From IMG/VR virus record IMGVR_UViG_3300022937_000093, positions 1-31,087 of that record: 31,087 nucleotides of DNA, one strand, 5' to 3'. The position numbers and the translations under genes are program-made. Under the pieces are notes generated by a model. The model searched no databases. It had not been told where the DNA came from and was given only the letters and a program-made list of their open reading frames with translations. This document shows, piece after piece, positions 2,995-31,087 of this stretch. The stretch comes from a virus. Lineage: Duplodnaviria > Caudoviricetes. Position 1 is the first letter of the stretch; the number at the start of each line of letters is the position of its first letter.

Positions 2995-3002
2995 TATAAA
3001 TA
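2995..3002 (+). promoter_or_regulatory. T4-type late promoter TATAAATA upstream of the ncRNA/tRNA unit
   Basis: Exact gp55-type consensus, intergenic, just after a terminator. Confidence 0.75.
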
Positions 3003-3007
3003 TTATT

Positions 3008-3238
3008 GTAAAGTCAAAGTCAATGCTGATTGGCGGTGAACTTTGGGACGCCCCTGGTGACAGCACACGCTGGTGACAGATGGTAAGTACGAAGGTGACG
3101 TGGATTAGTACACTCAACTCTCACATTAACCTTGATTTCACAAAACCAATTGTTTAAGGATATGGTTAATGTTAACCCAAAAACTCGGTAGTCTCGGAAT
3201 CTATAAAGTTAACGCTCAGCCATTTTCCTTTAAATCAA
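3008..3238 (+). ncRNA. Candidate structured RNA / tRNA 5' leader
   Basis: No credible CDS. Helices: 3015-3020/3040-3045, imperfect 3092-3104/3119-3133, 3130-3138/3232-3240 (perfect 9 bp) and 3156-3176/3208-3230. The loop of the last helix is complementary to the downstream anticodon arm. Confidence 0.55.
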
Positions 3239-3316
3239 GGGGGAGTGGCAGAGTGGCTCAATGCAATAGTTTCCGAGGCTATCCAACCGCGGGTTCGAAT
3301 CCCGTCTCCTCCACCA
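3239..3316 (+). tRNA. Atypical tRNA, anticodon CCG (nominally Arg, reads CGG), with Ala-type acceptor stem
   Basis: Cloverleaf: acceptor GGGGGAG/CTCCTCC, A73, encoded CCA; D arm GCAG-AGTGGCTCA-ATGC; anticodon arm ATAGT-TTCCGAG-GCTAT (CCG at 3273-3275); 6-nt variable region; T arm GCGGG-TTCGAAT-CCCGT. Confidence 0.88.
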
Positions 3317-3623: not shown

Positions 3624-3692
3624 TGTCAATTTAGGAGCCTACCTTAGAGTAGGACTTATGCGGATATCCACCGCGTAGACCCTAGAACGGCA
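3624..3692 (+). promoter_or_regulatory. Structured 5' UTR (three-way junction)
   Basis: TTTAGG(3630-35)/CCTAGA(3681-86) closes hairpins CCTAC/GTAGG (3638-3653) and TATGCGG/CCGCGTA (3657-3677). Confidence 0.5.
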
Positions 3693-3717
3693 ATATATAA
3701 AACAAAAGGAGAATATA

Positions 3718-4122
3718 ATGGGAAGACCAGTAAACAAAAGATACTTCGGATTACTAGATGACGGTACTAACCTTACGGTAAACGTACAGGTTGGTTCTAA
3801 CTCTGAATCAGAAGAAGGGTATATTATCAGACAAAGAAGTGAATCTAAATTTTTAGTTAACGATACTAAAACAGGAACAAAAACGAAAGTTGGCGGATCT
3901 GGAACTGGTAACGTATCTGTTTGTACACTTGTGGATAAAGCGGCAGGATCATTAGCGGCTGACGAAATGTCACTACAAGGTACACTAGCAGGAACTGATG
4001 GAAATCAAGTTAGAGTTGCAAAACTATATAATAGAACCTGCAGAGACTTTAATAATGTTAGATACAAATGGGAAGTTCAAAACGACTCATCCGAATCTAT
4101 CATGCTTTTAACTGCAATCTAA
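3718..4122 (+). CDS. Hypothetical virion protein (134 aa, MGRPVNKRYFG...)
   Basis: Strong AAGGAG RBS, with its own promoter and terminator, in a late-gene context. Confidence 0.8.
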   Translation: MGRPVNKRYFGLLDDGTNLTVNVQVGSNSESEEGYIIRQRSESKFLVNDTKTGTKTKVGGSGTGNVSVCTLVDKAAGSLAADEMSLQGTLAGTDGNQVRVAKLYNRTCRDFNNVRYKWEVQNDSSESIMLLTAI

Positions 4123-16500: not shown

Positions 16501-17039
16501 CAGACTTTAGTAACGGTGGTAGGGTTTTCTATTCATCAACTGACCAAGATGGTAACTTTAGGGTCGGCGAGTTGTTTGAAGTTGAACAAGCATCGGGTAT
16601 TGTAACTATTAATGCTGATCAATTTGAACTTGACGGATTAACTGAACTTTCATTAGGAGGTGTTACGCTCGGCGGAACAGGTGCTGTTATTAGAGAATTT
16701 AGTATCGATCCATTGTTTACAGCAAATAGTGATGAAATTGTTCCTACACAAAAAGCAATATCGGCATACGTTAAATCACGTATTACGGGCGGTGGATCTA
16801 GCGTTAACGTTAACAAAGCAACAGCGGGTGTTGTTGTAATTGGCGGAACAAGCGGACAATCATTAGAAACAAGTGATTTAACACCTATACAAATTAAAAC
16901 TAAAATGTCATTCCAAGGAGGTGTTGGAGGAAGCATGGCGGCAATGGCGTTCTTTGCTTTTGGAACAGATATTCCTATGGGCGATGACATGGGTGGAACA
17001 GACGAACTTGGAGGGGATGCAGGTGGACATGGCTTCTAA
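10524..17039 (+). CDS. Giant multidomain tail-fibre/adhesin-like protein (2171 aa)
   Basis: N-terminal W.....Y..GD.V.Y.G..Y.C repeats (CBM5/12-like); beta-helix region (ELRST, GLRN, SLDPG, YVQNVTT, ANDFTQ); Asp-box S.DG..W propeller repeats; C-terminal STDQDGNFRVG domain. Paralogue of 17072. Confidence 0.82.
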   Translation: MAQFKLERFTYSYAGDWEPNKAYKLDDIVTVNGNVYFCNKAHTSQTDFYLDFLYEFTYPAPYTAANDIDAEFDFSIDVGGENTTVDGSGLDFTVTRSGNRYSVAIVEGGRNYVTKEYFRIPGDQLGGVRGTNDAIVTIDTIDNVEDGGVITPGVVQSLSVTGTPALTKWEIQADGLSWQGEWQPSTGVPGTEPGDAGYPYVPKKYYINDLVFKSGNVYKCVQGHIASTDSTYGLENNIQYWTLQIQGNHWRGAWTGFTGYNPGDVVTYNGTIWRCVTSHQSDTIGVGLDGDAEKWLKVSESDYWRDSWQPLTRYRDRDIVTYGGIVYRCINPHTSGDATAGLIGDDGQGTFQDLGKWQVVVDGIRYTGDWQPSTKYYKNDIVRFSQNTYKATDYFTSDVDFDSANWEIYVPGMAYEDLWNLSTEYQPGDIVQYGGYTYYSKTFNENRIPPSNNADWEILGEWYNIKGQWSAIQDYKVGDVVSNNGYMYWCVSDNTGDRPDSGNNAQTYNIGFKNGTYTWNGVATPDLTFLRGTTITLNQSSLENNGNAIYPATEVDGELGVGVEVEQGYSVTYILDGEVVPTKDIYASGFNSASDRKVIIQIQPDAPGNLYFASYSNTGASGNQTITIAGSSNWDVLMPGTFFKGTWNDFEEDSSVTEYQIGDIATWAGTSYRCFKRHTANIQYSRPDEDVRKNNPEYWTVYIQGIRTNVLAQKGDIKTYQADSDIRVPIGDPSTVLKGLDQINADSSTGPGPQWQLFNESDKVYFVSLDGVDSPERGKTETSAFRTIKYACDFIQANPGARAPATIFVSTGEFKEELPIKVPNDVAVVGHELRSTRVVPKAGFEDTDMFHVKNGCGLRNMTMQGLVGTLGSPNEFGTRRPVDGGPSFVSLDPGSGPSDNSVWVYSKSTYVQNVTTIGVGCVGMKVDGQLHGGGNKSIVANDFTQVISGGIGMWITNGGLSELVSVFTYYCHIGYLAEVGGKIRATNGNNSYGDYGSVAEGFDLLETPITSKFDNRSTEATVTDVLTDLDDQIYLFGYGHAGQEYTSAKVQSFSGTGFGLSTEYTEFRNGALSEVRMMDPGDSSTPGGAGYSVATGQASAGDSTGLTLDATDTVEDSTGVYDGKRIILTQGKGKGQYAKVLSFDPSTKRCEIVRESDGLPGWDHWIPGTPIVTALDETSSYRIEPMVEFNEPPYSQSQGTLPTPLDYKRIRYGGGKFVAIAQSEFGRGNTNQFLYSTDGVSWTTGTFDGSALFTPNDFWSWSDLAYSGSTWVAVAKEGIVATSTDGVSWSLKEVSTDSTAPVERFIEFGANPVTSQSYKVTVSIPGDNPLYHFDGATNSAPDITLVAGNTYIFNQNDASNLSCPIYFATTPLGHHSGDTPISEGIKYFLDNVQVANLEAYVSGFDAAQTKRVEWTVPTNLVGVNVYYVNYNSTGSNVQTDSSYALVTIDSEKEFCVVGRSNAGSYEWWQSTDEGSTWTVYDLPSKESNPTAMTLTYGSGKFVITTKDYDSSVNRIYIKTPGQRSWREEFIGGADLSNVESAVYGNNLFIATETNSNNVFINPNGGEGQWYQQSGVLPTTGNWKLGYGQGVFVAFKPNSTEFAFSEDGIRWKTKTLSTSAKWEDIGFGDPDNDGKFILIGSGTPLQGAGEQKFVTIKAGRKPLGRVNINNNRVSSISIYDPGSNYVESLPDLVTNYNVTVARNTADDADVFYINGSETPALSFVEGKRYVFDQSDSSNVNGEDVYPLVFATDSGLNSIIEVNVIYRLGGVNKTRQEYVSGFASASERTVEIEIQFNAEATYYYGSSELAGMGNSISVSSSEQLAITITDPLATNEPTMLLRLANGVLPQPSFINRGTSFRSATATITGNGFADKYQVGKEIVVKELSREPGPGDNLAISGITQRDYLVTKVTNVQGVAPNLTATIQVSPPIGVDESPEHETEMTIRQKYSQVRLTFHDFLDIGTGNKNSTRYPVRYLEGFLSGSDNSPRQFNETDFSNGGRVFYSSTDQDGNFRVGELFEVEQASGIVTINADQFELDGLTELSLGGVTLGGTGAVIREFSIDPLFTANSDEIVPTQKAISAYVKSRITGGGSSVNVNKATAGVVVIGGTSGQSLETSDLTPIQIKTKMSFQGGVGGSMAAMAFFAFGTDIPMGDDMGGTDELGGDAGGHGF

Positions 17040-17042
17040 ATA

Positions 17043-17050
17043 CATAAATA
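17043..17050 (+). promoter_or_regulatory. Late promoter variant CATAAATA
   Basis: In the 32-nt gap between the two giant genes. Confidence 0.5.
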
Positions 17051-17071
17051 ACATTAGAATTGGAGTAATCA

Positions 17072-20000
17072 ATGGCTGAATTTTTACTTGGTAGAATTAA
17101 ATTTGTATGGAAAGGTGACTGGGCCTCTAGCACCGCATACGTTAAAGACGATGTTATAAGATACGGCGGTAAAGTATATATTTGTACGGCACCACACACA
17201 TCAGACACTAGTGATTTTTACCTAGATAGTGACAACTGGAATATTTTTACAGATGGATCAACATGGAAAGATGACTGGACTACTAGCACATACTACAAAC
17301 TAGGTGATATTGTCAAGTATGGTGGTTATTTGTATATTGCAAATAATGCTCATACATCAGCAGATACCGTCACAAAAGGTTTAGAGTTTAACCAAGCAGA
17401 TTGGGACATTTACTCAGAGTTTTTAGAATACAGAAATGATTGGGCAGTAAACACAAGATATCGTGTAAACGATATTGTAAAATATGGTGGAACCGTTTAT
17501 GTTTGTATTGACGATCACACTTCGTCAGCAACAGCCGAAACTGATATTGATGGTTTAGAAAGTGATAACAACGGAAAGGTTCTTACATTTGATTCTGTTT
17601 CAGCCGCAGATGCAAGTAGAGCCGCCGGCACTTATAGTGTAACAACTACAACAAATAATAATGGTTCAGGCGTTACAGCAAATGTTACCGTTGATGGTAT
17701 TGGTGGAGTTGCAATTACATTAACAGCAAACGGTCAAGGGTATGCTGTTGGAGATATTATTACAATCGCCGACGCTGACCTTGGAGCAGGCGGTGCACCG
17801 GATGTAACATTTACCGTTGTATCAGTTGCAGATAGATGGAATATTTTTTCCGAAGGGTTTGATTGGAAAAATGAATGGACTGCCGCAACTAGATATAAAA
17901 GAAATGATCTAGTTAGATATGGTGGACAATTATATGTTTGTAGATTAGGACATAAATCAGGAACTCTTTCTGATGGACTAGAAGCAGATCAATCTAAATG
18001 GGAATATTTTCATAAAGGTGTTGTATACAGAAGTGCTTGGGCATCAGGAACAAGATATCGTGTAAACGATTTAGTACAATACGGTGCAAACATTTATATT
18101 TGTACAACACATCACACAGCAACAAATTTTATTTCAGATGAATCTAATTGGGAAAACTTTGTTCCAGGTTTAGAATTTGAAGATAGTTGGAACATTGGAA
18201 CAACATATCAACCTGGAGATTTGGTTACTTATGGTGGTTATTCTTATATTGCAAAAACAAACAATGTAGGTAAAGCACCATACTCAAATGCAAACGATTG
18301 GGGATTATATCTAAAAGGATTAAACTTTAGAGGTGACTGGGGAGATGATTCTTCAGCACAAGATTATCTAGTTGGTGATGTGGTAAGAGTAGGTGGATAC
18401 ACTTATATGTGTATTCAGGATCATCAAAATCAAAGTCCACCAAATGCAACATACTGGGTAAGATTAAATCAAGGTATTGAATGGAACGGTGACTGGTCTA
18501 ACATTACACAATACGATTTAGGTGATGTTGTTTACTTTGGTGTTAACTCTTATCTTTGTGTACAAGCACACCAATCAGATCAAGCGATTGCACAAAATAG
18601 ACCAGATCAGGATACACAAGGGGATTACTGGGCAATACTAGCCGGAGGTAATGAACAAAGTGCATTAACAACAGACGGCGACTTAGTTTATTATTCAGGA
18701 TCAGGACCTACAAGATTACCAATTGGTGAAACAGGCCAAGTGTTATCTGTTGGAACTGCTGGATTACCTGCATGGCAATATTGGGGCAGAACAGATCATG
18801 TTTACTATGTTGGTCCTAACGGTAATGACGGAGATTATCCAGGATACGGTTCAACATTAGATAGACCTTTTAAAACTATTAGACGTGCATGTGAAGCAAT
18901 TGAAAAAGGATCTTTAAATCCTAATGCTGTTGATGCACTTAAAAAGAATAGACAATTCATTCAACGTGAGGTTGTTGAATGGGTTGATTATCAAATAGCA
19001 AACGTTATTTCTCCATTCACTGGAGCATTTACATACGACCAAGCATTGTGTTACAGAGATATGGGACACTTGGTTGATGCTGTTGTCTACGATTTATCAC
19101 ATGGTGGTAACGAAAAAACAAGATCAGTTGCTTATAACTATTTTGATAAAGACGGTGCAAGTTATGTTAATGGACAGGTTAGTGAAACGGTTGCGGCAAT
19201 TAACTATGCAATTACGGTAATGGATGCTGTTATTTCAAATGTAGATCCAGCAACAAATTATCAGACAGAAAACGGCTACACACCTGCTATTGTACAAATA
19301 AAACCTAACAATACAGAAGAAGCAAATGCACAAGCAATAATTACTAGTTTAGTTGCTATTGTTACCGATGCTATTACAGCAGGCGGCGTTTCAAATATTC
19401 CTGCAGAAGAAGCAGTACAAAAAACTATTTTTGTTAAAACAGGAACATATTACGAAATACTTCCTATTGTTGTTCCTAAGTTAACAGCAGTTGTTGGTGA
19501 TGAATTACGTAGTACGGTTGTTCAACCAAGCACATCGGCACAATATACACAAAGATCGGATATCGATTATAGTGTTGCGGCCATTACAAGAATTAAAAGT
19601 TTAATTAGTGATATTGCACAAGGTAATGGTGTTACTAAAACAGGTACAAATACTCAAACACAGATTACAGCAGGTCCGGCTGGTACAGCAACTGAAGGTA
19701 CAGAATTAGAAAGTAAATTGCAACATTTAATTGATTATATTAATTACTATGCTGGCAATGACACACAAGATTCAACAGCACCAGTTATGACAAATGGCCA
19801 GCAGTCATTAACAATTACAGACATTACAAAAGCATCTACTGCCGTAGTAACAACTTCGGTAGCACACGGATTATACGATAGACAACAAGTTCATATTAAA
19901 AACGTAAACGGTATGACCGAAGTCAATAACAGAGTTTTCTGGGTTGACAAAATTAATGCAACAACGTTTGCACTTTATGAAGATTTTTATCTAACAATTC

Positions 20001-23000
20001 CTCATAATAGCACAAGTCATAATGCTTACTCAAGCGGCGGCAATGCTTACTATAATGGCGATAGAGAATCGCAAGATCAAAATGTTCATAATGCTATTAG
20101 ACAACTTTATCTTAACAGAGAATTTTTAGCAGAAGAAGCAACGGCATATATTACTGCTACATATCCGTCTTATACATATTCAGTTGATAGTTGCAGACGT
20201 GATGTTAGAGAATATGTTGACTCACTTATCTGGGATTTGACTTACGGCGGAACATATAGAACAACAATGAACGGCCGTTGGTATGTTAATGCTGTCGAAG
20301 GTTCATTAACAGAAGATATGTTCTATCTAAGAGATGGTACTGGTTTAAGAAATTGTACCGTTAAAGGATTAACAGGAACATTAGGTACAACAAATGCTTA
20401 CGGAACAAAACGTCCAACAGCAGGTGCGTTTGTATCACTTGATCCAGGTTGGGGTCAAGCAGATAATAGAACTTGGATTGGTACACGTTCACCTTATGTA
20501 CAAAACGTAACAACATTTGGTACTGCGTGTGTTGGATTAAAAGTTGACGGTTCATTACACGATAGTGGTAACGATTCAATTGTTGCCAACGACTTTACAC
20601 AAATTTTAAGTGATGGTATTGGTGCATGGATTACAAACTTAGGTAGAGCAGAACTTGTTTCTGTGTTCTCATACTATGGACACATTGGATACCTAGCAGA
20701 GAACGGCGGTAAGATTCGTGCTACTAATGGTAACTCATCTTATGGTACATTTGGTACCGTAGCAGAAGGTGTTGACGCAACTGAAAAACCAATTACGGCT
20801 GTTGTTAATAACCAATTTAGAAACGCAGTTGTTGGCGAAGTACTTACAGATCAAAATCAAATTTTAACAATGTTCTATGACAATGCTGGTGTTAATTATG
20901 AATCAGCAACATTCACTATCGGCGGCGACGGTGCTAGTGCAAGTGTTATAGGAGACGAAATTAGAGACCAAGGTTTGTTTAATGTTAGAATGTTAAACAC
21001 TGATGTTAATGCAGATGGCACAGGAGACTTTGGTGGTGCAGATTACGGATTTGCTAACAACACAGCACAATTTGGTAATGAAACATCAATTAGAATTTCA
21101 AACACAGATACTGCAAATAGCGGTGACTACGATGGAATGAGAATTGTAATTACAAGTGGTTTAGGTGTTGGACAATATGCTTACATTGGATCATTTAATG
21201 CAGGTAACAAAGATGCTACCGTATTTAAAGAGTCAGATGACGAGCCAGGATGGGATCATTTTGTTCCTGGAACACCTATTGCGACATTACTTGACGGAAC
21301 AACAAAATATATTATTGAACCAAGAGTAACTATTAATGAACCACCGTTCTCAAGTACATCACAAACTTATGGAACAGCAATTCAAAGTTCTCAGAATTCA
21401 ATTGCTTTCGGTAATGACAGATTTATTATTGTAGGTTCCAATACAACAACGACATTATATTCAACAGACGGTGCTACATGGGCGGCCGGCGGTAATCTAC
21501 CAACAACACAACAATGGGGCGGATTAACACACGGTGGCGGTGATGATAGTACAGAAGAATGGATTTGTGTTGGTTATAATTCAACAGCAGGAGCATATTC
21601 AACAGACGACGGTGCTACTTGGAATTCAAGCACATTACCTGCAACAGCAAATTGGATTGATACAGCATTTGGTAATTTAAGATATGTTGCTATTGCTGAA
21701 GGTAGCACATCGGCGGCATATTCCGATGACGGAATTAGTTGGTCATCAACTACACTACCAAGCACACAAAATTGGAAAAAAGTTATTTACGGAAAACAAT
21801 TCCTAGCAATTAGTGATAATGCTAACTATGCTACATCGATCGACGGTTCAACATGGAACTCAAGAGCGTTACCAACATTTACTGATACTGATACAAAAGT
21901 AAAAGATGTTGCTTACGGTAACGGACGTTATCTTGTAATTGGTGATAAAGGAACTGAAGCATTTTATTCAACAGACGGTATTAACTGGACTTCAACAATA
22001 ATTGACACAACTGCTGATTCATCAATTGGTGGTGGTGATGGATTAATTGCATATGGTTCTGGTATATTCCTTTGGACAGCAAGTAAAAACGGTCAAGTTA
22101 AAACTATTGATGAAACAAGTTTCTCAGGTGCTGATGCATTAAGACCTGCTAATACATACACGGATGTAACACAAGATTCAACTACAGGCTCTGGAACAGG
22201 AGCAACATTTGACATTACGGTTGACGGAACAGGTACGGTAACAAGTGTAGTTCCAGTATTATTAGGTCAAGGTTATGCGGCCGGTGATACAATTACTATT
22301 GCAGATGCTAGCCTAGGCGGTGGTGGCGGAGCCAACTTTACTTTTGATATTCAAACTATTCATGATAGTTCACAAACATCAATCTCAAGAGATGGTATTG
22401 TTTGGAAAGCAAAAACAAATGGAAAAACAGATGCAGTTTATTCGTCACTAGCATATGGTAGACCTTATGTTTCAGGAAGTTCTGCACATAGACCAACATG
22501 GTTTGCTATACAAAGTGGTTCAAATACTGGTTCTATTATTAGAGCAGGTGCTCAAGCATTTGTTAGAGCAAGAGTTGCTACAGGTAAAATTGCAGGTATG
22601 AGAATTTGGGAACCTGGTTCAGGTTATTCAAGTCCTCCAACAATTACAATTACAGATCCTAGCAACACTATTGAGGCTCCTGTACAATTAAGAATTGGTG
22701 ACGGTGTATTAGGTAATCCAACTATTTCTAACGGTGGTACTGGCTACGAAACAGCACAGGCAACGGTTGCCGGCAGTGGTACAGCAGACGAGTTTCAACC
22801 AGGTGCTAACATCTTTATTAAAGATGTATCAGAAATTCCTAAAGCAGGATCTAACGTAGAATTTAGTAACTTGCCAGGATCATATTTCAAACTGGTTACG
22901 GTGCGTGAATTGACAGGGCCAGATGCAAAAGGAAACTATGCATGTAAACTTCAAGTTTCGCCGGACATTCCTGTTGATACTGCACCTCCACATTTAGATC

Positions 23001-23590
23001 CAATTTCAATGCGTATCCGTTACTCACAGGTTCGTTTAACAGGACACGATTTCTTGGATATTGGTACAGGTAACTTTATTACTACCAATTATCCAAACAT
23101 ACCATTACAAGATCCAGATCCAGCAAAAGAAACGGTCGTTGGTGGCGGAGGTAGAGTATTCTTTACTTCGACCGACCAAGATGGTAACTTTAGAGTAGGT
23201 GATTTGTTCTCAGTAGAACAAAGTACTGGTGTTGCAACACTAGATGCTGATGCATTTAATATTGCAGGACTAAACGAACTTTCATTAGGTTCAGTAGAAC
23301 TTGGTGGAACTGGTGCTGTCATTACAGAGTTCAGTACTGACGGTACTTTTGCGGCAGATTCGGACAGCGTTGTCCCAACACAAAGAGCAATTAGAACATT
23401 TATTAATGCTCAAATTGGTGGCGGTAATTCCGAATTGAACGTAAATATCTTAACAGCAGGTGTTATTGAAATCAAAGAAGATCAGATCGATACAACAACT
23501 GGTGTGCAGATTAACGTTAAACAAAAAATGAACTTCACAGGTGGAATTGATGGCGATGCTGTTGCATTACAAAGATTCCTATTAAGTTAA
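17072..23590 (+). CDS. Giant multidomain tail-fibre/adhesin-like protein (2172 aa)
   Basis: Same scaffold as 10524 (CBM-like repeats, beta-helix, Asp-boxes, YSQVRLT.HDFLDIGTGN, STDQDGNFRVG) with different inserted domains. Confidence 0.82.
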   Translation: MAEFLLGRIKFVWKGDWASSTAYVKDDVIRYGGKVYICTAPHTSDTSDFYLDSDNWNIFTDGSTWKDDWTTSTYYKLGDIVKYGGYLYIANNAHTSADTVTKGLEFNQADWDIYSEFLEYRNDWAVNTRYRVNDIVKYGGTVYVCIDDHTSSATAETDIDGLESDNNGKVLTFDSVSAADASRAAGTYSVTTTTNNNGSGVTANVTVDGIGGVAITLTANGQGYAVGDIITIADADLGAGGAPDVTFTVVSVADRWNIFSEGFDWKNEWTAATRYKRNDLVRYGGQLYVCRLGHKSGTLSDGLEADQSKWEYFHKGVVYRSAWASGTRYRVNDLVQYGANIYICTTHHTATNFISDESNWENFVPGLEFEDSWNIGTTYQPGDLVTYGGYSYIAKTNNVGKAPYSNANDWGLYLKGLNFRGDWGDDSSAQDYLVGDVVRVGGYTYMCIQDHQNQSPPNATYWVRLNQGIEWNGDWSNITQYDLGDVVYFGVNSYLCVQAHQSDQAIAQNRPDQDTQGDYWAILAGGNEQSALTTDGDLVYYSGSGPTRLPIGETGQVLSVGTAGLPAWQYWGRTDHVYYVGPNGNDGDYPGYGSTLDRPFKTIRRACEAIEKGSLNPNAVDALKKNRQFIQREVVEWVDYQIANVISPFTGAFTYDQALCYRDMGHLVDAVVYDLSHGGNEKTRSVAYNYFDKDGASYVNGQVSETVAAINYAITVMDAVISNVDPATNYQTENGYTPAIVQIKPNNTEEANAQAIITSLVAIVTDAITAGGVSNIPAEEAVQKTIFVKTGTYYEILPIVVPKLTAVVGDELRSTVVQPSTSAQYTQRSDIDYSVAAITRIKSLISDIAQGNGVTKTGTNTQTQITAGPAGTATEGTELESKLQHLIDYINYYAGNDTQDSTAPVMTNGQQSLTITDITKASTAVVTTSVAHGLYDRQQVHIKNVNGMTEVNNRVFWVDKINATTFALYEDFYLTIPHNSTSHNAYSSGGNAYYNGDRESQDQNVHNAIRQLYLNREFLAEEATAYITATYPSYTYSVDSCRRDVREYVDSLIWDLTYGGTYRTTMNGRWYVNAVEGSLTEDMFYLRDGTGLRNCTVKGLTGTLGTTNAYGTKRPTAGAFVSLDPGWGQADNRTWIGTRSPYVQNVTTFGTACVGLKVDGSLHDSGNDSIVANDFTQILSDGIGAWITNLGRAELVSVFSYYGHIGYLAENGGKIRATNGNSSYGTFGTVAEGVDATEKPITAVVNNQFRNAVVGEVLTDQNQILTMFYDNAGVNYESATFTIGGDGASASVIGDEIRDQGLFNVRMLNTDVNADGTGDFGGADYGFANNTAQFGNETSIRISNTDTANSGDYDGMRIVITSGLGVGQYAYIGSFNAGNKDATVFKESDDEPGWDHFVPGTPIATLLDGTTKYIIEPRVTINEPPFSSTSQTYGTAIQSSQNSIAFGNDRFIIVGSNTTTTLYSTDGATWAAGGNLPTTQQWGGLTHGGGDDSTEEWICVGYNSTAGAYSTDDGATWNSSTLPATANWIDTAFGNLRYVAIAEGSTSAAYSDDGISWSSTTLPSTQNWKKVIYGKQFLAISDNANYATSIDGSTWNSRALPTFTDTDTKVKDVAYGNGRYLVIGDKGTEAFYSTDGINWTSTIIDTTADSSIGGGDGLIAYGSGIFLWTASKNGQVKTIDETSFSGADALRPANTYTDVTQDSTTGSGTGATFDITVDGTGTVTSVVPVLLGQGYAAGDTITIADASLGGGGGANFTFDIQTIHDSSQTSISRDGIVWKAKTNGKTDAVYSSLAYGRPYVSGSSAHRPTWFAIQSGSNTGSIIRAGAQAFVRARVATGKIAGMRIWEPGSGYSSPPTITITDPSNTIEAPVQLRIGDGVLGNPTISNGGTGYETAQATVAGSGTADEFQPGANIFIKDVSEIPKAGSNVEFSNLPGSYFKLVTVRELTGPDAKGNYACKLQVSPDIPVDTAPPHLDPISMRIRYSQVRLTGHDFLDIGTGNFITTNYPNIPLQDPDPAKETVVGGGGRVFFTSTDQDGNFRVGDLFSVEQSTGVATLDADAFNIAGLNELSLGSVELGGTGAVITEFSTDGTFAADSDSVVPTQRAIRTFINAQIGGGNSELNVNILTAGVIEIKEDQIDTTTGVQINVKQKMNFTGGIDGDAVALQRFLLS

Positions 23591-24355: not shown

Positions 24356-25234
24356 ATGGCAGACTTAAAAAGTTTATTAGACAAAGCAACGGCAGAGGAC
24401 TTTGATGCGAATGATCCATCAATGCCTCGTAACAAATATTATTCTTGTCAGGTAACATTTGCTACAATTTGCGGAGTCTCTCATAACAGAGATCAGTGTA
24501 AACACGAATTTTGCTGGACACCTGAACCCGACGTTACTAAAATGAAAATTCAAATGTGGGGCGGCGGCGGAGGCGGCGGCGGAGTCTGTTGTTGTTCATG
24601 GGGTTTCTCTGGAGGCGCAGGTGCTTACGTAGAACTTCAAAATATCGACGTTACTAATTGTAAAACAGAATACCGGATTTGTATTGGACCACCTTCATGT
24701 TGTTCACCTGTTCAATCATGTGGATACAGAGGTTGTAAATCATACATTACTAACGGATACCTAAGAAAATGCGACGGCACAACTTGTGCTGGTAACTTCT
24801 GTGCAGAGGGCGGTATTTCAGGTTGTTCTTTCTGCTTTATGTTTAACTGCTTTAACTGCGGAATTTATATGGATCCAAGATACAGCACAACATGTGCTTG
24901 TTATTTTGACGGTGACCTAGGTTATCCGGGAAGAGTAGGCGGTATCGCTACATTTTGTTCTAACAACAATGCTTGTTGGTACAAACACTATACAATGATT
25001 CCTGCGATGCTTGAAACTTGTAAAGAAAGATGGGAATTAACAAGATTCTGTGCCCAAAATATGCCAGGTGGCTGGGACGGATGTAAAATGGGACAAGGAT
25101 ACCTTATGGGCGGCGGTGGATCGCATCAAAGAGTACCAGGCGTAGGTGGAATTTCAGGTTCTGCTGTCGGTGGAAACTGCTATTGCGGTGGTCCAGGCGG
25201 CCCTGGTTTAGTAAGAGTATCAATGTTTACGTAA
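24356..25234 (+). CDS. Cys-rich, Gly-rich putative fibre-tip/adhesin protein 1
   Basis: AAGGAG RBS; WGGGGGGGGVCCC...GG.GAY and C-terminal PG.GG...G.VRV; 29 Cys in 292 aa. Confidence 0.8.
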   Translation: MADLKSLLDKATAEDFDANDPSMPRNKYYSCQVTFATICGVSHNRDQCKHEFCWTPEPDVTKMKIQMWGGGGGGGGVCCCSWGFSGGAGAYVELQNIDVTNCKTEYRICIGPPSCCSPVQSCGYRGCKSYITNGYLRKCDGTTCAGNFCAEGGISGCSFCFMFNCFNCGIYMDPRYSTTCACYFDGDLGYPGRVGGIATFCSNNNACWYKHYTMIPAMLETCKERWELTRFCAQNMPGGWDGCKMGQGYLMGGGGSHQRVPGVGGISGSAVGGNCYCGGPGGPGLVRVSMFT

Positions 25235-25251
25235 AGGAGAATGAAGGTAAC

Positions 25252-26100
25252 ATGGCAAATTTAAGATCACTTATAGGTTCAGTTAGCGTTAACGACATAT
25301 CGCCTTTACAAGATAAATGTACATTATATTTTCTTCCGCATTGTCAATGTTATTGTAACTCAGACTACGGCGGAAACTGCTACCTATACTGGTGCGTTCC
25401 AGCAGGTACAACAAAAATGAAAATGGAAGTATGGGGCGGCGGTGGATCCGGCGCTGGTGCTTGTTGTTGTATGGGTGGTACACCGGGTGGATCAGGTGCA
25501 TGGGCATACAAATGTTTAGATTCAGCAACAGATTTTGCGGCAGGTAACACATATGATTTATATCCAGGCCCATCAACTTGCTGTGCTTCATGCTGTTGTG
25601 GAATTATTGGATGTAAAGGTTATATTTCAGGTCCAGGGTTAACTAACTTTTGTGCTGACGGCGGTAATGCAGGTCAGACTTGTTGTTTTATTCACTGGGG
25701 TTGGTCAGACTGCGTAGGTAATAGATGCGGTTATTATTATACAAATAGAATGTGTTGTATTTGTTGCAGATGCCATTATGGTTCGGATGGAGGTTCTCCA
25801 GGAAGACCTAGTGCTATTTGGGCACAATGTACTTGTGGATCGTGCTGGTGGAAATTATTATATCACTATCCAGGCGGTATTAACAATACCACAGGTGGAT
25901 TCACAACAACACAAACAATGGGTAATGCTTGTAACCATGAATGGTCACGTTGTGTACGGGGTAACCTAGGTTGGGCAACAGGACAATCAGGTCATTTACC
26001 TGGTGTCGGTGGTCCGAGTGCAACATCATGCGGTGGCGGATGTTGTTATGGATTTCCCGGCGCGGCAGGAATGGTAAGAATTACTTATGATCAAAGTTAG
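25252..26100 (+). CDS. Cys-rich, Gly-rich putative fibre-tip/adhesin protein 2
   Basis: The likely start ATG 25252 (MANLRSL) matches the paralogue N-termini; WCVPAG...EVWGGGGSGAGACCC; 34 Cys in 282 aa. Confidence 0.8.
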   Translation: MANLRSLIGSVSVNDISPLQDKCTLYFLPHCQCYCNSDYGGNCYLYWCVPAGTTKMKMEVWGGGGSGAGACCCMGGTPGGSGAWAYKCLDSATDFAAGNTYDLYPGPSTCCASCCCGIIGCKGYISGPGLTNFCADGGNAGQTCCFIHWGWSDCVGNRCGYYYTNRMCCICCRCHYGSDGGSPGRPSAIWAQCTCGSCWWKLLYHYPGGINNTTGGFTTTQTMGNACNHEWSRCVRGNLGWATGQSGHLPGVGGPSATSCGGGCCYGFPGAAGMVRITYDQS

Positions 26101-26114
26101 GGGTAAATATTGAT

Positions 26115-26960
26115 ATGGCACAACTAAGTTCATACGTTTCGGAATTAAGATTACCAGCAGGATCATCAACAACAGATCTTCCAGCGGGTTGTCAGTTTGT
26201 ATATTCATCAAGTTGTTGGAGTTGTCCATCATTTGGTAACTATCAACAATATTGTTGTTTTGCATTTATTGTACCGAGCGATGCGGCAAGAGCAACGTTT
26301 GAGGCTTGGGGATCAGGCGGCGGTGGCGGTGTGTCTTGTTGCTGTATGGGCGGATCACCGGGCGGATCAGGTGCTTATTCAAGAAAAACAATTCCAGTAT
26401 CAACAGGTTGGTGCTATGACCTATGTTTAGGTGAAGGCGCATGTTGTAATAATGGACGGAACGGATTTAGAGGATGTCGTTCTTCTGTAAAAGGATGTAA
26501 TATTAGTATTTGTGGTTCTGGCGGTAAGCCAGGATGTTCATACTGCTTCCCAGGTTGCGGATGTTACGTAACAGGATACTGCTGTTGTCGTGCTTGGAAC
26601 TGCGGTTGCTGTATTAACGATAGTCCAGCAGAAGCATCCGGCGGAGATTTTAACGTATGCGGTGTTCGTGGATGGATGCAACATAGAGCATGTGGCGGCC
26701 ATTGCTGTCACAAACAACACATTCCATATCCAGGTGGATTGGTTAACAAATGCGGTGGTACCGTTGCTGTACAAAATGGTGGTAGAGGTTTTGAGACTTA
26801 CGAAAATTGTGCGGCTATGAACAATGTGGGATGGAATAGACTTTCTCCACAATATGTACCAGGTATGGGTGGCCCAACTTATTGGAGATGGTCAGGTGGA
26901 TGTCATTGTGGATCGTATGGTGCTCCAGGACTAATTAGAATTACTTGGTATGATAACTAA
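26115..26960 (+). CDS. Cys-rich, Gly-rich putative fibre-tip/adhesin protein 3
   Basis: VPS...FEAWGSGGGGGVSCCCMGG.PGGSGAY...GLIRITW; 33 Cys in 281 aa. Confidence 0.8.
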   Translation: MAQLSSYVSELRLPAGSSTTDLPAGCQFVYSSSCWSCPSFGNYQQYCCFAFIVPSDAARATFEAWGSGGGGGVSCCCMGGSPGGSGAYSRKTIPVSTGWCYDLCLGEGACCNNGRNGFRGCRSSVKGCNISICGSGGKPGCSYCFPGCGCYVTGYCCCRAWNCGCCINDSPAEASGGDFNVCGVRGWMQHRACGGHCCHKQHIPYPGGLVNKCGGTVAVQNGGRGFETYENCAAMNNVGWNRLSPQYVPGMGGPTYWRWSGGCHCGSYGAPGLIRITWYDN

Positions 26961-26984: not shown

Positions 26985-27731
26985 ATGGCAATAACACATA
27001 TTACACACGAGTTTGAATACGATTTACCAGACAAGTATCTGTATCAAACTAATGAGTTAGGACTTAAAGCATCTTGGATTTACAACGGTCCTGCTAGACT
27101 ATGGGTACAAGTTAACAAAGAAACAGGTCTTCTAGTCGCGGCAAACGATTGTATTCCTGATGATGGAACTCCTGAAACAGCATTACAAGCAAAATATCAA
27201 GCAGGATTAGATCATGTTGCTGTTTTAGTTAATGCTAAAGAGCATCCTATTATTGCTAGTATTATGTGGATGGAAATTGACCAAGCAGATTTTCCACAAG
27301 TAGAATTTACAAGAGAAGATGTTGATCCAACAGATACAACGGTTTATTACTCACGTGCCGCAACACCAACTTTAGACCATACATATGAAATTAATGAAGT
27401 AATGTATAACGAAGAAGCCAATGAATGGGTTTATCCTTTACCTTGGAAAAAACCACACATGAATTGGGATATGCTTGAAGCCGGTAGATTAAATCTTATT
27501 GCTGATGGTAAACAAATTATAGAAAGTTTAGAAAACGATCCAGATGCAACTGAAGGTCAGTGGACCACACTTATTGCAGAAATGAAAGACTTTGTTACAG
27601 AACTTGAAGCAATACCTACTAAATTTCCTAGAGACACTTGGGATCCATGGATGGTTCCATTCCCGGAAGATCCTAGAACAAATGCAGAGGATGTGCAAGT
27701 TGCAGAAGTAACCGTTGAGGGGAGCGAATAA
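26985..27731 (+). CDS. Acidic protein, possible tail-fibre assembly chaperone (paralogue A)
   Basis: Follows the fibre-tip genes; C-terminal L..IP.KFP...W..PFPEDP resembles phage tail assembly chaperone ends; paralogue of 27731. Confidence 0.6.
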   Translation: MAITHITHEFEYDLPDKYLYQTNELGLKASWIYNGPARLWVQVNKETGLLVAANDCIPDDGTPETALQAKYQAGLDHVAVLVNAKEHPIIASIMWMEIDQADFPQVEFTREDVDPTDTTVYYSRAATPTLDHTYEINEVMYNEEANEWVYPLPWKKPHMNWDMLEAGRLNLIADGKQIIESLENDPDATEGQWTTLIAEMKDFVTELEAIPTKFPRDTWDPWMVPFPEDPRTNAEDVQVAEVTVEGSE

Positions 27732-28504
27732 TGAGCATTACACCATCGTACCTATCTGAAGTAGAAATTGTATTTGAATATGCTATTCCTGACAAGTATC
27801 TACATCAAACAAACGAACTAGGCAAAACAGCAACATTCACATACAAAGGTCCAGAAAAACTTTGGGTATTTGTTGAAGCAGACACAGGAAAATTAGTTGT
27901 TGGAATGGACGCTAGAGCACACAATCCAGAAGATGAAAAAGAAGAAGCAGAAATGCACAAATTTGCCGGATTGAGCCACAAAGCAATTTTAGTAGATGCA
28001 AATGAACAGCCATTACTAGCAACGTTAGTATGGATGGACAACGAACCACATGAAAATTATCCGTGCAAAGCATGGAGAGATCCTGATACTAATGAAGTAT
28101 TATATTGGGAAACAGATCCGTTAATTCCAGACGATGCATATGATCAAGAAAACATCCATTATGATCTAAACAAAAACGAATGGAAAAAGCCTTTTCCTTG
28201 GGAAAAACCAGGAATGACAGAAGAAGAATGGGAAGAGTCAAGAAAGGCTACTGCATGGCACGTTTCTGAAGAATTACGCAAAGATGAAGACTTAAATAAT
28301 CCAGCAAATGCCGCAATACGTCAAAAAGTTGTTGATCATTTGAATGAACTTGAAAATTTAAGAACTAAATTTCCAAAACCAGAATGGGATCATTGGATGA
28401 TTCCGTTTCCTAAGCATCCTAGAGGTGATATATTCTCTGGAAATAAATTCGAAGCAGACGAAGCAATTGATCCTGATAGATCAAAAGTAGACGTTAACGA
28501 ATAG
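27731..28504 (+). CDS. Acidic protein, possible tail-fibre assembly chaperone (paralogue B)
   Basis: TAATG stop/start overlap; shares FEY..PDKYL.QTNELG...Y.GP..LWV and KFP...WD.WM.PFP..PR with 26985. Confidence 0.6.
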   Translation: MSITPSYLSEVEIVFEYAIPDKYLHQTNELGKTATFTYKGPEKLWVFVEADTGKLVVGMDARAHNPEDEKEEAEMHKFAGLSHKAILVDANEQPLLATLVWMDNEPHENYPCKAWRDPDTNEVLYWETDPLIPDDAYDQENIHYDLNKNEWKKPFPWEKPGMTEEEWEESRKATAWHVSEELRKDEDLNNPANAAIRQKVVDHLNELENLRTKFPKPEWDHWMIPFPKHPRGDIFSGNKFEADEAIDPDRSKVDVNE

Positions 28505-28540
28505 TCAAAACCACTTTTATTCCTCTGGTAAAAACTACCC

Positions 28541-28548
28541 TATAAATA
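28541..28548 (+). promoter_or_regulatory. T4-type late promoter TATAAATA
   Basis: Exact consensus upstream of the glycosyltransferase gene. Confidence 0.7.
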
Positions 28549-28585
28549 TTCTTGCATAAAGCAATAATATACTTAGAGGAACAAC

Positions 28586-29764
28586 ATGAGCAAAACTAGA
28601 TCTACAGCCTTTTTTATCAACGGAGGAGCAGGCCGCGTAATAGCCAGTATTCCTGCGTTAGAACTATTTAGAAAAGAAAACCCCGACGATGATTTTATCA
28701 TTGTTTGTGAAGGGGGAACCGAGTTTTATAAAGGTCATCTAGACCTAGATAAACGTGCATACGATGTATGGCACAAAAATTTATTCCAAGAAAAAATTAA
28801 AGATAGAAATTGTATAAGTCCTGAACCTTATAGAATTTGGGATTATTACAATCAAAAAGCAAGTTTAGCACAAGCATTTGATATTCAAATTAACAATCTA
28901 AGTGAACCAAGAGAATTGCCTAAGCCTACTTTAAAATTAAGTAGAGAAGAAGTACTAAACGGTGAAATTACCCTTAATGAAGTAAAACAAATTACTGGCA
29001 AAGATAAAGTTATTGTTATTCAACCATTCGGAAGAGGAATTAGTTATCGTGATGGTGTGTTTAATGATAGTACTTCAAGAAGTATTGAATATGAAGATCT
29101 AGTTTCTATTATTAAAAAATTACACGATAAAGATCATGCTGTTATGATTATGGCCGAAATGCAAATTGATTTTAGTACACACGACATTAAAGTTCCGATC
29201 CCTACACCAACCGGAATTACATTACGTCAATGGGCGGGATTAATTAGAGGTTGTGATTATTTTATTGGGTGTGATAGTGTTGGACAACATATTGCAGATT
29301 CAGTAGGTACTGCGGCTACGGTAATTACGGGATCAACAGATCCGATTAATATTTCTCATCCTGAAAATAAAAAGTTTACAATTATTGACATGGGATCAAC
29401 TGACAGAGAATATGCTCCTATTAGAATTACTCCAGATGAGATGTGTGATAGACTTAATGACGGATTAATGAAAATGGAAACTTCTGATATTGATAAAGTT
29501 ATCAAAAGTGTTCAATTAGGTTTAAAAAATTACGGAAAAGAATCAGCAATTAAAGTAAAAGCAAAATTAAAAGATGAAGGACAACAACCACAAGGTGAAG
29601 TTTGTCCAGTACACGGTGTAGTACATGATCATGGACACGTACATCAAATGCAAACACCAATGCCAGCAACACCACAAGGCGGAACAATGCCAGGCGGAAC
29701 TGCAATGAGTTCGCAATTTGGCGTTGTACCTCCATATATGCAACAAAAAGAAACTAAGGAGTAA
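28586..29764 (+). CDS. Glycosyltransferase, GT9 (heptosyltransferase)-like GT-B fold
   Basis: N-terminal GGAGRVIASIPAL, IVIQPFG and LRQWAGLIRGCDYFIGCDSVGQHIA match the GT9 L....ALI...D.FIG.DSG..H.A motif; GAGG RBS. Confidence 0.78.
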   Translation: MSKTRSTAFFINGGAGRVIASIPALELFRKENPDDDFIIVCEGGTEFYKGHLDLDKRAYDVWHKNLFQEKIKDRNCISPEPYRIWDYYNQKASLAQAFDIQINNLSEPRELPKPTLKLSREEVLNGEITLNEVKQITGKDKVIVIQPFGRGISYRDGVFNDSTSRSIEYEDLVSIIKKLHDKDHAVMIMAEMQIDFSTHDIKVPIPTPTGITLRQWAGLIRGCDYFIGCDSVGQHIADSVGTAATVITGSTDPINISHPENKKFTIIDMGSTDREYAPIRITPDEMCDRLNDGLMKMETSDIDKVIKSVQLGLKNYGKESAIKVKAKLKDEGQQPQGEVCPVHGVVHDHGHVHQMQTPMPATPQGGTMPGGTAMSSQFGVVPPYMQQKETKE

Positions 29765-29769
29765 AATAT

Positions 29770-31087
29770 ATGAGTGAAAAGAAACCAGTTTGGATTGCAG
29801 GTATTGCTAGAGGACATAATTCAGGTGTTTGTTTACTCAAAGATGGCAAGGTAGTTTTCTCTGTAGAAGAAGAAAGACTATCAAGGCAGAAGTACGACGG
29901 CGGACCGTTTGCGTCAATGATTAAAATTTTAGATTATACAGATAAAATTGATTATTTGGTTGTTGCACATACTCAAAGTTTACAAGAAACTGCTCCAAGA
30001 GTTGATTATACCGGTGACGATGTTTATACAGGCATGGCACGTAAATTAGGATTAATTAGTAGAAAAGATAATCCATACGGACATAGTCAAGTAATTGATA
30101 TGAGTTTTGTACATCACAAGTTACATGCCGCCGCGGCATTTTATCGTTCTGGTTTTGAAAAGGCTGTTGCTGTAATTGTTGACGGTGCAGGAACATTTAT
30201 CCCTTTACAATTTGGCGGTGAACATATTACTGGATGGGAAACAGAAACTATTTTTACATGTGACTATCCTGGAACTTTTAAAACAATTTACAAACACATT
30301 GGAGTACAAAAACCAAGCGTTCATGTAAGCAATCCTACTTTTGATAGTAGTATGTATAACGAAGATGGTACACATCATTGTGTTATTACCGACGGTGCTG
30401 GTATTACTAAAGTTTATGAAGCGGTAACAGAATACTGCGGATTTAGTTCTATTGAAGCAGGCAAGACTATGGGACTATTTCCATATGGTAAAGAGAATTT
30501 AGATATTCCACCGTTATTTAGATACGGCGAAGCGAAGCATCCTACTGCAAATAGAAATTTAATTATTCCTAATTATCCTAATGGTGCTATTGTTAACGCA
30601 CTTGCATATGACTTCCTTGAAACAAATGTAGAAGAAAGCAAATATACGGTAACAAATGATGGCGGACCTGACAGAACTAGATTACAAAATAGAAGAGATC
30701 TAGCGTATGCTTGTCAAATTCAAACACAAAACCAAGTTGCTGACCTAATTAGAAAAGCAGTACAAATGTCAGGTGAAAAAAATGTAGTAGTTAGTGGCGG
30801 CTATGGTTTAAATTGCGTTGCTAATTATCATTATCTTGAAGAACTAAAGGATGAAGGTATTAATTTATATGTAGAACCTATTTCTAATGATGCAGGCACA
30901 GCAATGGGTGCGGCAATGATGATTTCTAGAAGTATTAGTCAAGACATGACTATCGATCATAGTTTAAAACATTCATTATATCTAGGACCAAAACATGAAT
31001 ATACTGATGCGTCAATTCAAGAGCATGTTGATAGGTATAATGGAACAATTGAAGATGCTGACTATAACAAGGTAGCAGACTTAATTG
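29770..31087 (+). CDS. Carbamoyltransferase, NodU/CmcH/TobZ family (3' truncated; absent from the ORF track)
   Basis: MSEKKPVWIAGIARGHNSGVCLLKDGKVVFSVEEERLSRQKYDG...HHKLHAAAAFYRSGF...IVDGAG...EAGKTMGL.PYG...SGGYGLNCVAN...PISNDAGTAMGAA...YLGP; AAGGAG RBS; open to the window end. Confidence 0.92.
   Translation, partial: MSEKKPVWIAGIARGHNSGVCLLKDGKVVFSVEEERLSRQKYDGGPFASMIKILDYTDKIDYLVVAHTQSLQETAPRVDYTGDDVYTGMARKLGLISRKDNPYGHSQVIDMSFVHHKLHAAAAFYRSGFEKAVAVIVDGAGTFIPLQFGGEHITGWETETIFTCDYPGTFKTIYKHIGVQKPSVHVSNPTFDSSMYNEDGTHHCVITDGAGITKVYEAVTEYCGFSSIEAGKTMGLFPYGKENLDIPPLFRYGEAKHPTANRNLIIPNYPNGAIVNALAYDFLETNVEESKYTVTNDGGPDRTRLQNRRDLAYACQIQTQNQVADLIRKAVQMSGEKNVVVSGGYGLNCVANYHYLEELKDEGINLYVEPISNDAGTAMGAAMMISRSISQDMTIDHSLKHSLYLGPKHEYTDASIQEHVDRYNGTIEDADYNKVADLI

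Follow-up and report, generated by a model that had tools for sequence, protein, structure and literature searches.

A rare CGG codon placed once in each of three Cys-rich putative fibre-tip genes of a T4-like jumbo phage, and a phage-borne alanine-type tRNA(CCG) with a predicted antisense leader

It has long been asked why phages carry tRNA genes of their own, and proposals of late-gene control through codons have mainly concerned recoded stops. Sensing of the codon UUA by a Streptomyces phage has reportedly been observed. In this study, a linear virus record of 31,087 nt (IMG/VR record IMGVR_UViG_3300022937_000093; Duplodnaviria, Caudoviricetes), referred to as the window, was analyzed with respect to the arginine (Arg) codon CGG, which occurs once in each of three cysteine-rich (Cys-rich) paralogues, and to a tRNA with the anticodon CCG, tRNA(CCG), encoded in the same record. 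Rare-codon control is known from bldA and UUA in Streptomyces (PMC10732093), which, as described there, share with the present locus a very rare sense codon, one dedicated tRNA whose supply is limited (in the present case by prediction) and a chosen gene set; the confinement of the rare codon to a gene set was also found here, within the 31 kb covered per species. However, the bldA tRNA is host-encoded and cognate, whereas the present tRNA is phage-encoded and has an alanine (Ala)-type acceptor, and a predicted antisense leader acting in cis, putative virion-tip targets and a moving codon position further distinguish the two systems.

Phage suppressor tRNAs have been proposed, in the account of 10.1101/2021.08.26.457843, to license late structural genes via recoded stop codons, and the likeness lies in a phage tRNA proposed to license late genes through a codon that the host reads inadequately. 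Here, however, the codon is a sense codon, present once per gene in three genes of the covered DNA, and no stop is reassigned, all window genes being open under translation table 11 and ending in TAA or TAG. As far as their descriptions go, tRNA-ProX (PMC11415595) and the G3·U70 allo-tRNAs (PMC5389517) likewise join the identity of one amino acid to the anticodon of another, but tRNA(CCG) has a 7/5 branch (8/4 or 9/3 in allo-tRNAs), a short variable arm of 6 nt, the anticodon CCG, a phage cassette, defined targets and a predicted antisense lock. Bacterial reassignments of CGG to tryptophan or glutamine, as reported in PMC8629427, resemble the present case in an AT-rich setting, a near-unused CGG and a tRNA(CCG) without A20; they differ in that the tRNA here is Ala-type and phage-borne and that CGG stands at ancestral Arg positions, because of which no established reassignment is recognized here. 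A search of mostly open literature, without supplements, did not turn up an Ala-type tRNA(CCG) in a phage, a gate built from a sense codon and a tRNA of the phage itself, or a tRNA locked by an antisense element; the supplementary tRNA tables of PMC5389517 or PMC8629427 could list Ala-type tRNA(CCG) sequences, which limits this negative.

The genes of the window, which include those for the prohead protease, the scaffold, the major capsid protein (gp23) and the tail, are those of a T4-like jumbo phage; by capsid, its nearest isolates (64-69% identical) are jumbo phages of Proteobacteria, and the runs in which the Cys-gene region occurs carry the labels salt marsh, estuary or aquatic metagenome. 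The completeness estimates of relatives imply a genome of ~330-360 kb, so that the ~31 kb covered per species represent about 1/10 of the genome. The curated set comprises 21 genes on the + strand, and an extended set adds the last gene, which is cut by the window end. A dedicated synthetase, as described for the tRNA-ProX type, was not found among the 22 window genes scanned, with ~90% of the genome lying outside this sample. The three Cys-rich genes are as follows.

24356..25234, + strand: Cys-rich paralogue 1, 292 aa with 29 Cys; CGG at codon 107 (24674-24676), the same site as in the sister species.
25252..26100, + strand: Cys-rich paralogue 2, 282 aa; CGG at codon 236 (25957-25959).
26115..26960, + strand: Cys-rich paralogue 3, 281 aa with 33 Cys; CGG at codon 115 (26457-26459).

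The curated genes contain 330 Arg codons (AGA 248, CGT 56, CGC 9, AGG 8, CGA 6 and CGG 3), or 346 with the cut gene. An earlier sequence-only reading had put Arg at roughly 350 codons, mostly AGA or CGT, with CGG at these three mutually non-homologous positions alone and about 32 Arg codons in the trio; the recount is identical for the positions and for the 32 Arg codons, and the alignment agrees that the sites are not homologous. With the cut gene included, CGG accounts for 3/32 Arg codons in the Cys-rich genes versus 0/314 elsewhere (Fisher p = 7.2e-4; p = 8.0e-4 within the CGN box), and the probability of one CGG per gene arising by chance is 1.7e-4. Among 59 codons tested CGG ranks first, with a Bonferroni-corrected p of ~0.04 for the window alone, and no other rare codon shows such a pattern in the Cys-rich genes. 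The caveat that these genes might be richer in GC did not hold: third-position G in four-fold boxes is 25/394 (0.063) in the Cys-rich genes versus 274/4046 (0.068) elsewhere, so GC content is ruled out as the cause and the enrichment survives the correction.

Several technical explanations were likewise ruled out. Independent contigs from other runs span sites 1 and 3 with zero differences, and these, together with L108 and L110, which retain all three CGG sites of the window, and the contigs of the sister species exclude an assembly artefact. The start of gene 2 was taken as the ATG at 25252, which is shared by all orthologues; a mechanical open reading frame (ORF) from the TTG at 25183 would add two CGG, and shadow ORFs in other frames also contain CGG. 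Frameshifting or bypass at the CGG codons was rejected, since the sites have no common context and alternative frames stop within 0-29 codons. Over the five distinct sites of the two species there is neither a shared sequence context nor a conserved alternative frame, as would be expected if codon position is irrelevant, and a scan with the codon-site pattern returned only one unrelated match.

The strongest evidence in the analysis comes from a sister phage (DNA 88% identical to the window; genomes given as 85%-identical) with an identical tRNA in L095 and L097, the tRNA(CCG) sequence being the same throughout L095-L098. The contig bearing its tRNA, G007, overlaps the contig bearing its Cys-rich genes, L111, over 1,735 bp at 99.9%, so that this tRNA belongs with these genes. 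In 31.2 kb with 20 called ORFs, CGG makes up 3 of the 350 Arg codons of the sister, again one per Cys-rich gene, with 0/316 elsewhere; the upstream records contain no CGG in 3,156 (G009) and 2,978 (G008) codons. The site in gene 1 is the shared codon 107, while those in genes 2 and 3 are codons 113 and 122 instead of 236 and 115, and both moved sites are confirmed by L114, 98.6% identical to L111. The counterpart codons at moved sites in the other species are CGT, AGA, CGT and one serine codon, the sister having CGT at codon 236 of gene 2 and AGA at codon 115 of gene 3. The only other species with the tRNA likewise carries one CGG per Cys-rich gene, at positions that have turned over, in agreement with the proposed link between tRNA and genes. 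Since the count stays at one per gene while the position moves, selection appears to favour the presence of a CGG rather than any given residue; this conserved count with moving position was observed in two species of one clade.

Within genes of ~285 codons, the stretch from codon 107 to codon 122 contains all but one of the five CGG sites (24674 and 26457 in the window; 10337 and 11227 in L111). The outlier is in gene 2 of the window, where the interval between codons 6 and 157 is free of Arg codons.

Relatives without the cassette that contains the tRNA were also searched. Their 49 distinct Cys genes (L001-L014, L113 and L115-L130) contain no CGG in 537 Arg codons, although these are not 49 independent tests because many come from near-identical strains. 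At the three CGG sites of the window, orthologues that retain Arg all use AGA, two changes away from CGG; the residue aligned with CGG is accordingly Arg in part of the orthologues, and the Ala that a reassignment or a variant protein would have suggested was found at 0/5 sites. Neither the cassette nor a tRNA was found after gp23 at any of 67 relative loci, namely those of 84 gp23 loci with at least 500 nt of 3' flank. In four records that contain both gp23 and the Cys trio, the gp23 terminator runs directly into the next gene; these records are only 12-50% complete, and a tRNA may lie elsewhere in those genomes. Cassette and codons are, in this material, present or absent together. Six close relatives have CGG in 0/453, 0/466, 0/1312, 1/876, 1/682 and 3/718 Arg codons, and gene 1 used as a query retrieved no relatives.

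The cassette is a gain of ~300 bp that opens with a late-promoter consensus at 2995, followed by a module of ~100 nt, a leader and the tRNA. Its elements are as follows.

2995..3002, + strand: T4-type late promoter consensus TATAAATA at the cassette start, invariant in both species.
3015..3115, + strand: conserved non-coding module in which an 11-nt unit containing GGTGAC occurs three times.
3123..3172, + strand: predicted switch segment, with two alternative inverted repeats in both species.
3186..3233, + strand: antisense leader, predicted to pair with tRNA nt 1-45 in the minimum-free-energy (MFE) fold of both species.
3239..3316, + strand: tRNA with anticodon CCG (ARAGORN; 52.7 bits against the Rfam tRNA model for the identical sister copy).

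The acceptor of tRNA(CCG) has G1-C72, G2-C71, G3·U70 and A73, and C20 replaces A20. G1-C72, G2-C71 and A73 are minor identity elements for Ala. G3·U70 alone suffices for recognition by alanyl-tRNA synthetase (AlaRS) according to the account in PMC11415595, and A20 together with A or G at position 73 serves as a criterion for Arg tRNAs in that of PMC8629427; tRNA(CCG) has CCG in a 7-nt loop and a purine at 73 and lacks A20. In other phages, A20 is present in 9/9 control tRNAs for Arg (TCT/TCG) versus 0/7 CCG tRNAs of those genomes. The acceptor is alanine-type, and on these sequence features tRNA(CCG) likely inserts Ala at the Arg codon CGG. Since it is identical to the tRNA-Cys of a family member (G041) at 49/78 positions and of equal length, it is likely a remodelled tRNA-Cys. 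Decoding of CGG as Cys or selenocysteine was rejected, as the sites align with Arg and not Cys and the tRNA has A73. A third variant of the tRNA has three changes and keeps CCG and G3·U70, with U31·G39 replaced by U-A. A transfer-messenger RNA (tmRNA) was also rejected: the match is confined to the acceptor and T arm (33.4 bits versus a gathering threshold of 47; 40 nt versus 328 in the model), unlike such a fragment tRNA(CCG) has a full anticodon arm, and low-threshold ARAGORN tag calls are noise (158 in the window). The nearness of its acceptor stem and T arm to the tmRNA consensus may reflect convergence on AlaRS recognition or a recombined origin. The 92%-complete member G041 carries a 25-tRNA array (G041:C1:194408-203999) with Arg(TCG), Thr(AGT) and a call for Ile(TAT), and no tRNA(CCG).

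The sequence-only reading contained neither the predicted antisense lock on the tRNA nor the conserved RNA upstream of it. The leader is complementary to the tRNA, nucleotides 3188-3204 forming an anti-anticodon element with CGG at 3195-3197. For leader plus tRNA the MFE is -55.9 versus -24.4 kcal/mol with the cloverleaf forced (-54.1 versus -22.6 in the sister); the anticodon is predicted to be paired at a probability of 1.0, and 0/1000 shuffled leaders pair as strongly. The two leaders are 9 substitutions and 6 gap columns apart, yet 36 and 34 pairs are kept, whereas under equal random divergence the stability of the lock was retained in only 9/600 and 0/600 trials. Its z-score is -6.2, compared with -3.2 for the best of 53 control tRNAs. 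These folds predict that the tRNA is shut by its own leader, through a lock that is strong, conserved and exceptional. The predicted switch segment offers two alternatives: in one, 3123-3131 pairs with 3164-3172 and covers an ATG at 3169 that lies behind AGGA as a ribosome-binding site, and in the other, 3130-3138 joins up with 3232-3240, which lies at the loop of the lock hairpin. The reading frame of this putatively translated leader is not conserved between the species, and a 9-codon leader ORF ending in CGG-TAG (3162-3191) was rejected since its frame is lost in the sister.

TATAAATA corresponds to the consensus of a T4-type late promoter, and its TAAATA core also precedes other late genes in the window. 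The module has 3 differences between the species in ~100 nt while its flanks diverge, and it is a candidate sensor or protein-binding RNA. It has no Rfam match and folds no better than shuffled sequences (z 0.09); scans with it returned only the same four contigs, and no homologue was found in 99 other sources (1.85 Mb). A T-box or other known riboswitch was sought from 2860 up to 3760, with no such Rfam family at E <= 1. No contig matching the cassette occurs in three RNA runs, which does not demonstrate its absence.

All three Cys-rich genes match phrog_4205, and gene 2 reaches the Pfam family Gly_rich_2 just at the cut-off (24.4 versus 24.3 bits). An AlphaFold model of gene 3 (predicted local distance difference test 66; predicted template-modelling (TM) score 0.69) was matched by Foldseek to the Pam3 fibre (E 2.4e-5, TM-score 0.45), as well as to the Bxb1 tail tip and to glycine-rich viral proteins, and the proteins have invariant glycine (Gly) motifs. 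In gp38, loops between Gly motifs recognize the host, as described in PMC12032242. With gp38-type (PMC12032242) and Pam3 (PDB 7ypx) adhesins, so far as these are described, the present proteins share Gly-rich motifs, variable loops, size, location in the tail module and the fold match; they differ in ~11% Cys, three tandem paralogues and a TM-score of only 0.45. The three are predicted to be polyglycine-sandwich adhesins of the fibre tip that probably bind the host. Heterotrimer predictions of the paralogues scored 0.55, 0.00 and 0.00 and were not used either way.

Around these elements, two tandem fibre-like paralogues (2,171 and 2,172 aa) with CBM_5_12 repeats occupy 10524-23590 and contain 0 CGG in 148 Arg codons. 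On the 3' side of the Cys trio, 26985-31087 encodes two phrog_9740 paralogues, a phrog_8954 gene and a carbamoyltransferase, in an order kept in close relatives. A freshwater-2 RNA (Rfam RF02980, 57.8 bits) at 3637-3720 precedes a 134-aa gene.

The reading that we tentatively prefer, at somewhat less than even probability, is a position-independent rare-codon gate on the three tip genes, opened by a riboregulated phage tRNA that likely inserts Ala. CGG would be poorly read late in infection, the host decoder being scarce or destroyed; where tRNA-UCG is absent, CGG is among the few codons left to one dedicated tRNA, and of the Arg codons the one most readily so left, according to the account in PMC8629427. 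By analogy with UUA in Streptomyces, a lone CGG anywhere in the frame would stall the ribosome. The late cassette transcript would be shut by default and opened by a signal, via the upstream RNA or ribosome loading at 3169; host AlaRS would charge the released tRNA, and in the proteins thus licensed Ala would stand at an Arg site that tolerates it. The outcome would be a conditional choice as to whether virions receive the tip set. A gate is favoured because a single codon free of position is what stall-based control needs, and a conditional supply of the tRNA because the lock makes sense only then.

A number of observations weigh against this gate. Two relatives, G002 (11/2054 Arg codons) and G045 (10/1260), have scattered CGG, some of it in replication genes, so that CGG is readable in at least some hosts, or via a tRNA outside the assembly; the genes with CGG include one of 890 aa that is presumably a DNA polymerase. 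The co-occurrence of cassette and codons is not an independent replication because it lies in one clade with probably one gain of the cassette, and the CGG pattern was read from ~10% of each genome. That 4/5 CGG columns are variable speaks for the gate, but the preference over other Arg columns (12/29) is not significant (p = 0.16). Insertion of Ala would mean that two residues change whenever the codon moves. Ala is fixed at none of the five sites in any orthologue or examined cluster member; on longer contigs of the clade, such as those encoding P0021, P0038 and P0052 (123,785 bp for the longest listed), Gln stands at codon 107 of gene 1 and Ile at codon 122 of gene 3; codon 115 of gene 3 is Arg in 12/12 orthologues, and Ala there may cost function, although in distant homologues Ala occurs at this site in 2/12 and at codon 122 in 1/12. 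The clustering of the sites at codons 107-122 may mean that position matters. Finally, a gate would be equally workable with an Arg-type tRNA, which leaves the Ala identity unexplained, and neither the lock nor the gene cluster accompanies the other Ala-acceptor tRNA(CCG)s.

The Ala identity is accounted for by an unlikely alternative, also part of the sequence-only reading, in which the host reads CGG as Arg and the unlocked tRNA gives Ala, so that each gene yields two adhesin forms. The counterpart codons are all Arg but one, and moves would be silent if Arg is the default; CGG is readable in G002 and G045; and four of the five sites surround a loop between Gly motifs, loops of this kind setting host recognition in gp38 as described in PMC12032242. 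However, the site is not conserved between the sisters, the five columns are structurally different, no Arg/Ala polymorphism exists among orthologues at CGG sites, and codon 113 of gene 2 tolerates serine and glutamine, so that Ala there is probably a minor change. The correspondence noted between Cys-Val-Arg in paralogue 2 and Cys-Ala-Ala in paralogue 3 is real as an alignment but carries little weight, as orthologues show Arg, Lys, Pro or Phe. Gating is preferred because the codon shifts from one Arg site to another without any change in its number per gene; of the earlier proposal, the link between the tRNA and these genes is supported, with gating the better fit, and the homologues give no support to Arg/Ala variant tips, no orthologue having Ala at the five sites.

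A wider search bears on the next alternative. A pattern of this acceptor with CCG matched 187 loci. The ARAGORN calls at these loci comprised 25 distinct tRNAs of the kind, of which 20, the present one among them, come from viral records; G3·U70 was built into the pattern and the lack of A20 was not. A control scan of nine C34 anticodons (49/64 parts scanned) gave 119 loci, 75 with a matching tRNA call, and the distinct sequences numbered CCG 15, CCA 3, CTA 2, CCT 1, CAT 1 and none for CTG, CTT, CAA and CAG; the other calls consisted of off-register true Ala tRNAs and of odd loops. In nine phage records with such a tRNA, CGG is rare and scattered, and since nine alignable sites face Arg (2), Lys (4), Asn (2) and Ala (1), these phages have no full reassignment of CGG. 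The tRNA might, in a quite improbable reading, be a weapon that mistranslates CGG-containing genes of the host, its defences or competitors and is locked because it is toxic, the CGGs of the tip genes then being a brake or read-out and not a licence. The recurrence on varied bodies in 20 distinct viral sequences, with CCG at 15 versus 7 for four other C34 anticodons combined, is consistent with it, as are the scarcity of CGG in those phages and the proportion of their CGG sites that face Arg (2/9 versus 57% for other Arg codons, p = 0.045); G3·U70 allo-tRNAs insert Ala in Escherichia coli, and induced Ser-type ones killed cells, as reported in PMC5389517. Nevertheless, the regain of exactly one CGG per tip gene after a loss is left unexplained, the depletion of CGG is modest and found also in relatives without the tRNA, and the aligned sites number only nine.

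Members of this class have several different tRNA bodies without A20 and are labelled tRNA-Arg by ARAGORN. They are found, each at ~601-675, in the viral records L148, L150, L154, L160-L163, L165, L167, L168, L177, L178, L186-L188, L190, L192, L194, L197, L207, L208, L212 and L213, and in L241, L243, L258, L274, L293, L307 and L311 of the genome collection. The antisense lock was rejected as a general feature of the class: in a set of 24 others, a tendency towards it is confined to L311 (z -4.5, with the anticodon free) and L178 (z -2.8). In L160, L167, L194, L197 and L213, a structured-looking motif with no Rfam match at the gathering threshold is shared ~70 nt upstream of tRNA(CCG). Ala-acceptor tRNAs with the stop anticodons CTA or TCA occur in the viral records L387, L402, L437, L413, L446 and L480 and are candidate Ala-inserting suppressors. 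In G022, a Thr/Pro repeat protein (G022:C1:173724-176927) holds 4/18 of the CGG of the genome, with AGA, CGT and CGA also found at the same repeat position.

The CGG codon might instead act independently of the tRNA, as a slow codon that tunes the level or co-translational folding of disulfide-rich proteins, the cassette being a separate gain. Both features occur in one clade only, the sites clustered near codon 110 could correspond to a folding pause, and the tie between the tRNA and these mRNAs is one of sequence pattern. This is likewise improbable: 49 orthologous genes fold without CGG, the anticodon of the gained tRNA exactly matches the gained codon, and no other rare codon is patterned likewise. 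Neutral drift, with the tRNA merely making CGG tolerable, is very improbable and already largely refuted, for despite small counts and a codon chosen post hoc at the corrected p given above, ~90% of new CGG would be expected outside the trio whereas 5/5 distinct sites are inside it, one per gene in both species with none among 314 and 316 other Arg codons. The probability not taken up by these five readings belongs to mechanisms that were not thought of.

In a broader form, which we regard as doubtful, the preferred gate would be part of a riboswitchable code: a sensor RNA would release the locked Ala tRNA, which would capture CGG and decide the making or the form of three tips, as one regulated member of an unrecognized, convergent class of phage tRNA-Ala(CCG). 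The locus provides a compact and testable sense-codon case of codon-based late-gene control, involving a single tRNA, a single codon and three genes, in which the position of the codon turns over in evolution. If true, the silencing of a natural tRNA by an antisense leader of its own would offer a ready design for switchable decoding. The recurrent class of Ala-acceptor tRNA(CCG)s may serve phages generally as a device for mistranslation or stall rescue.

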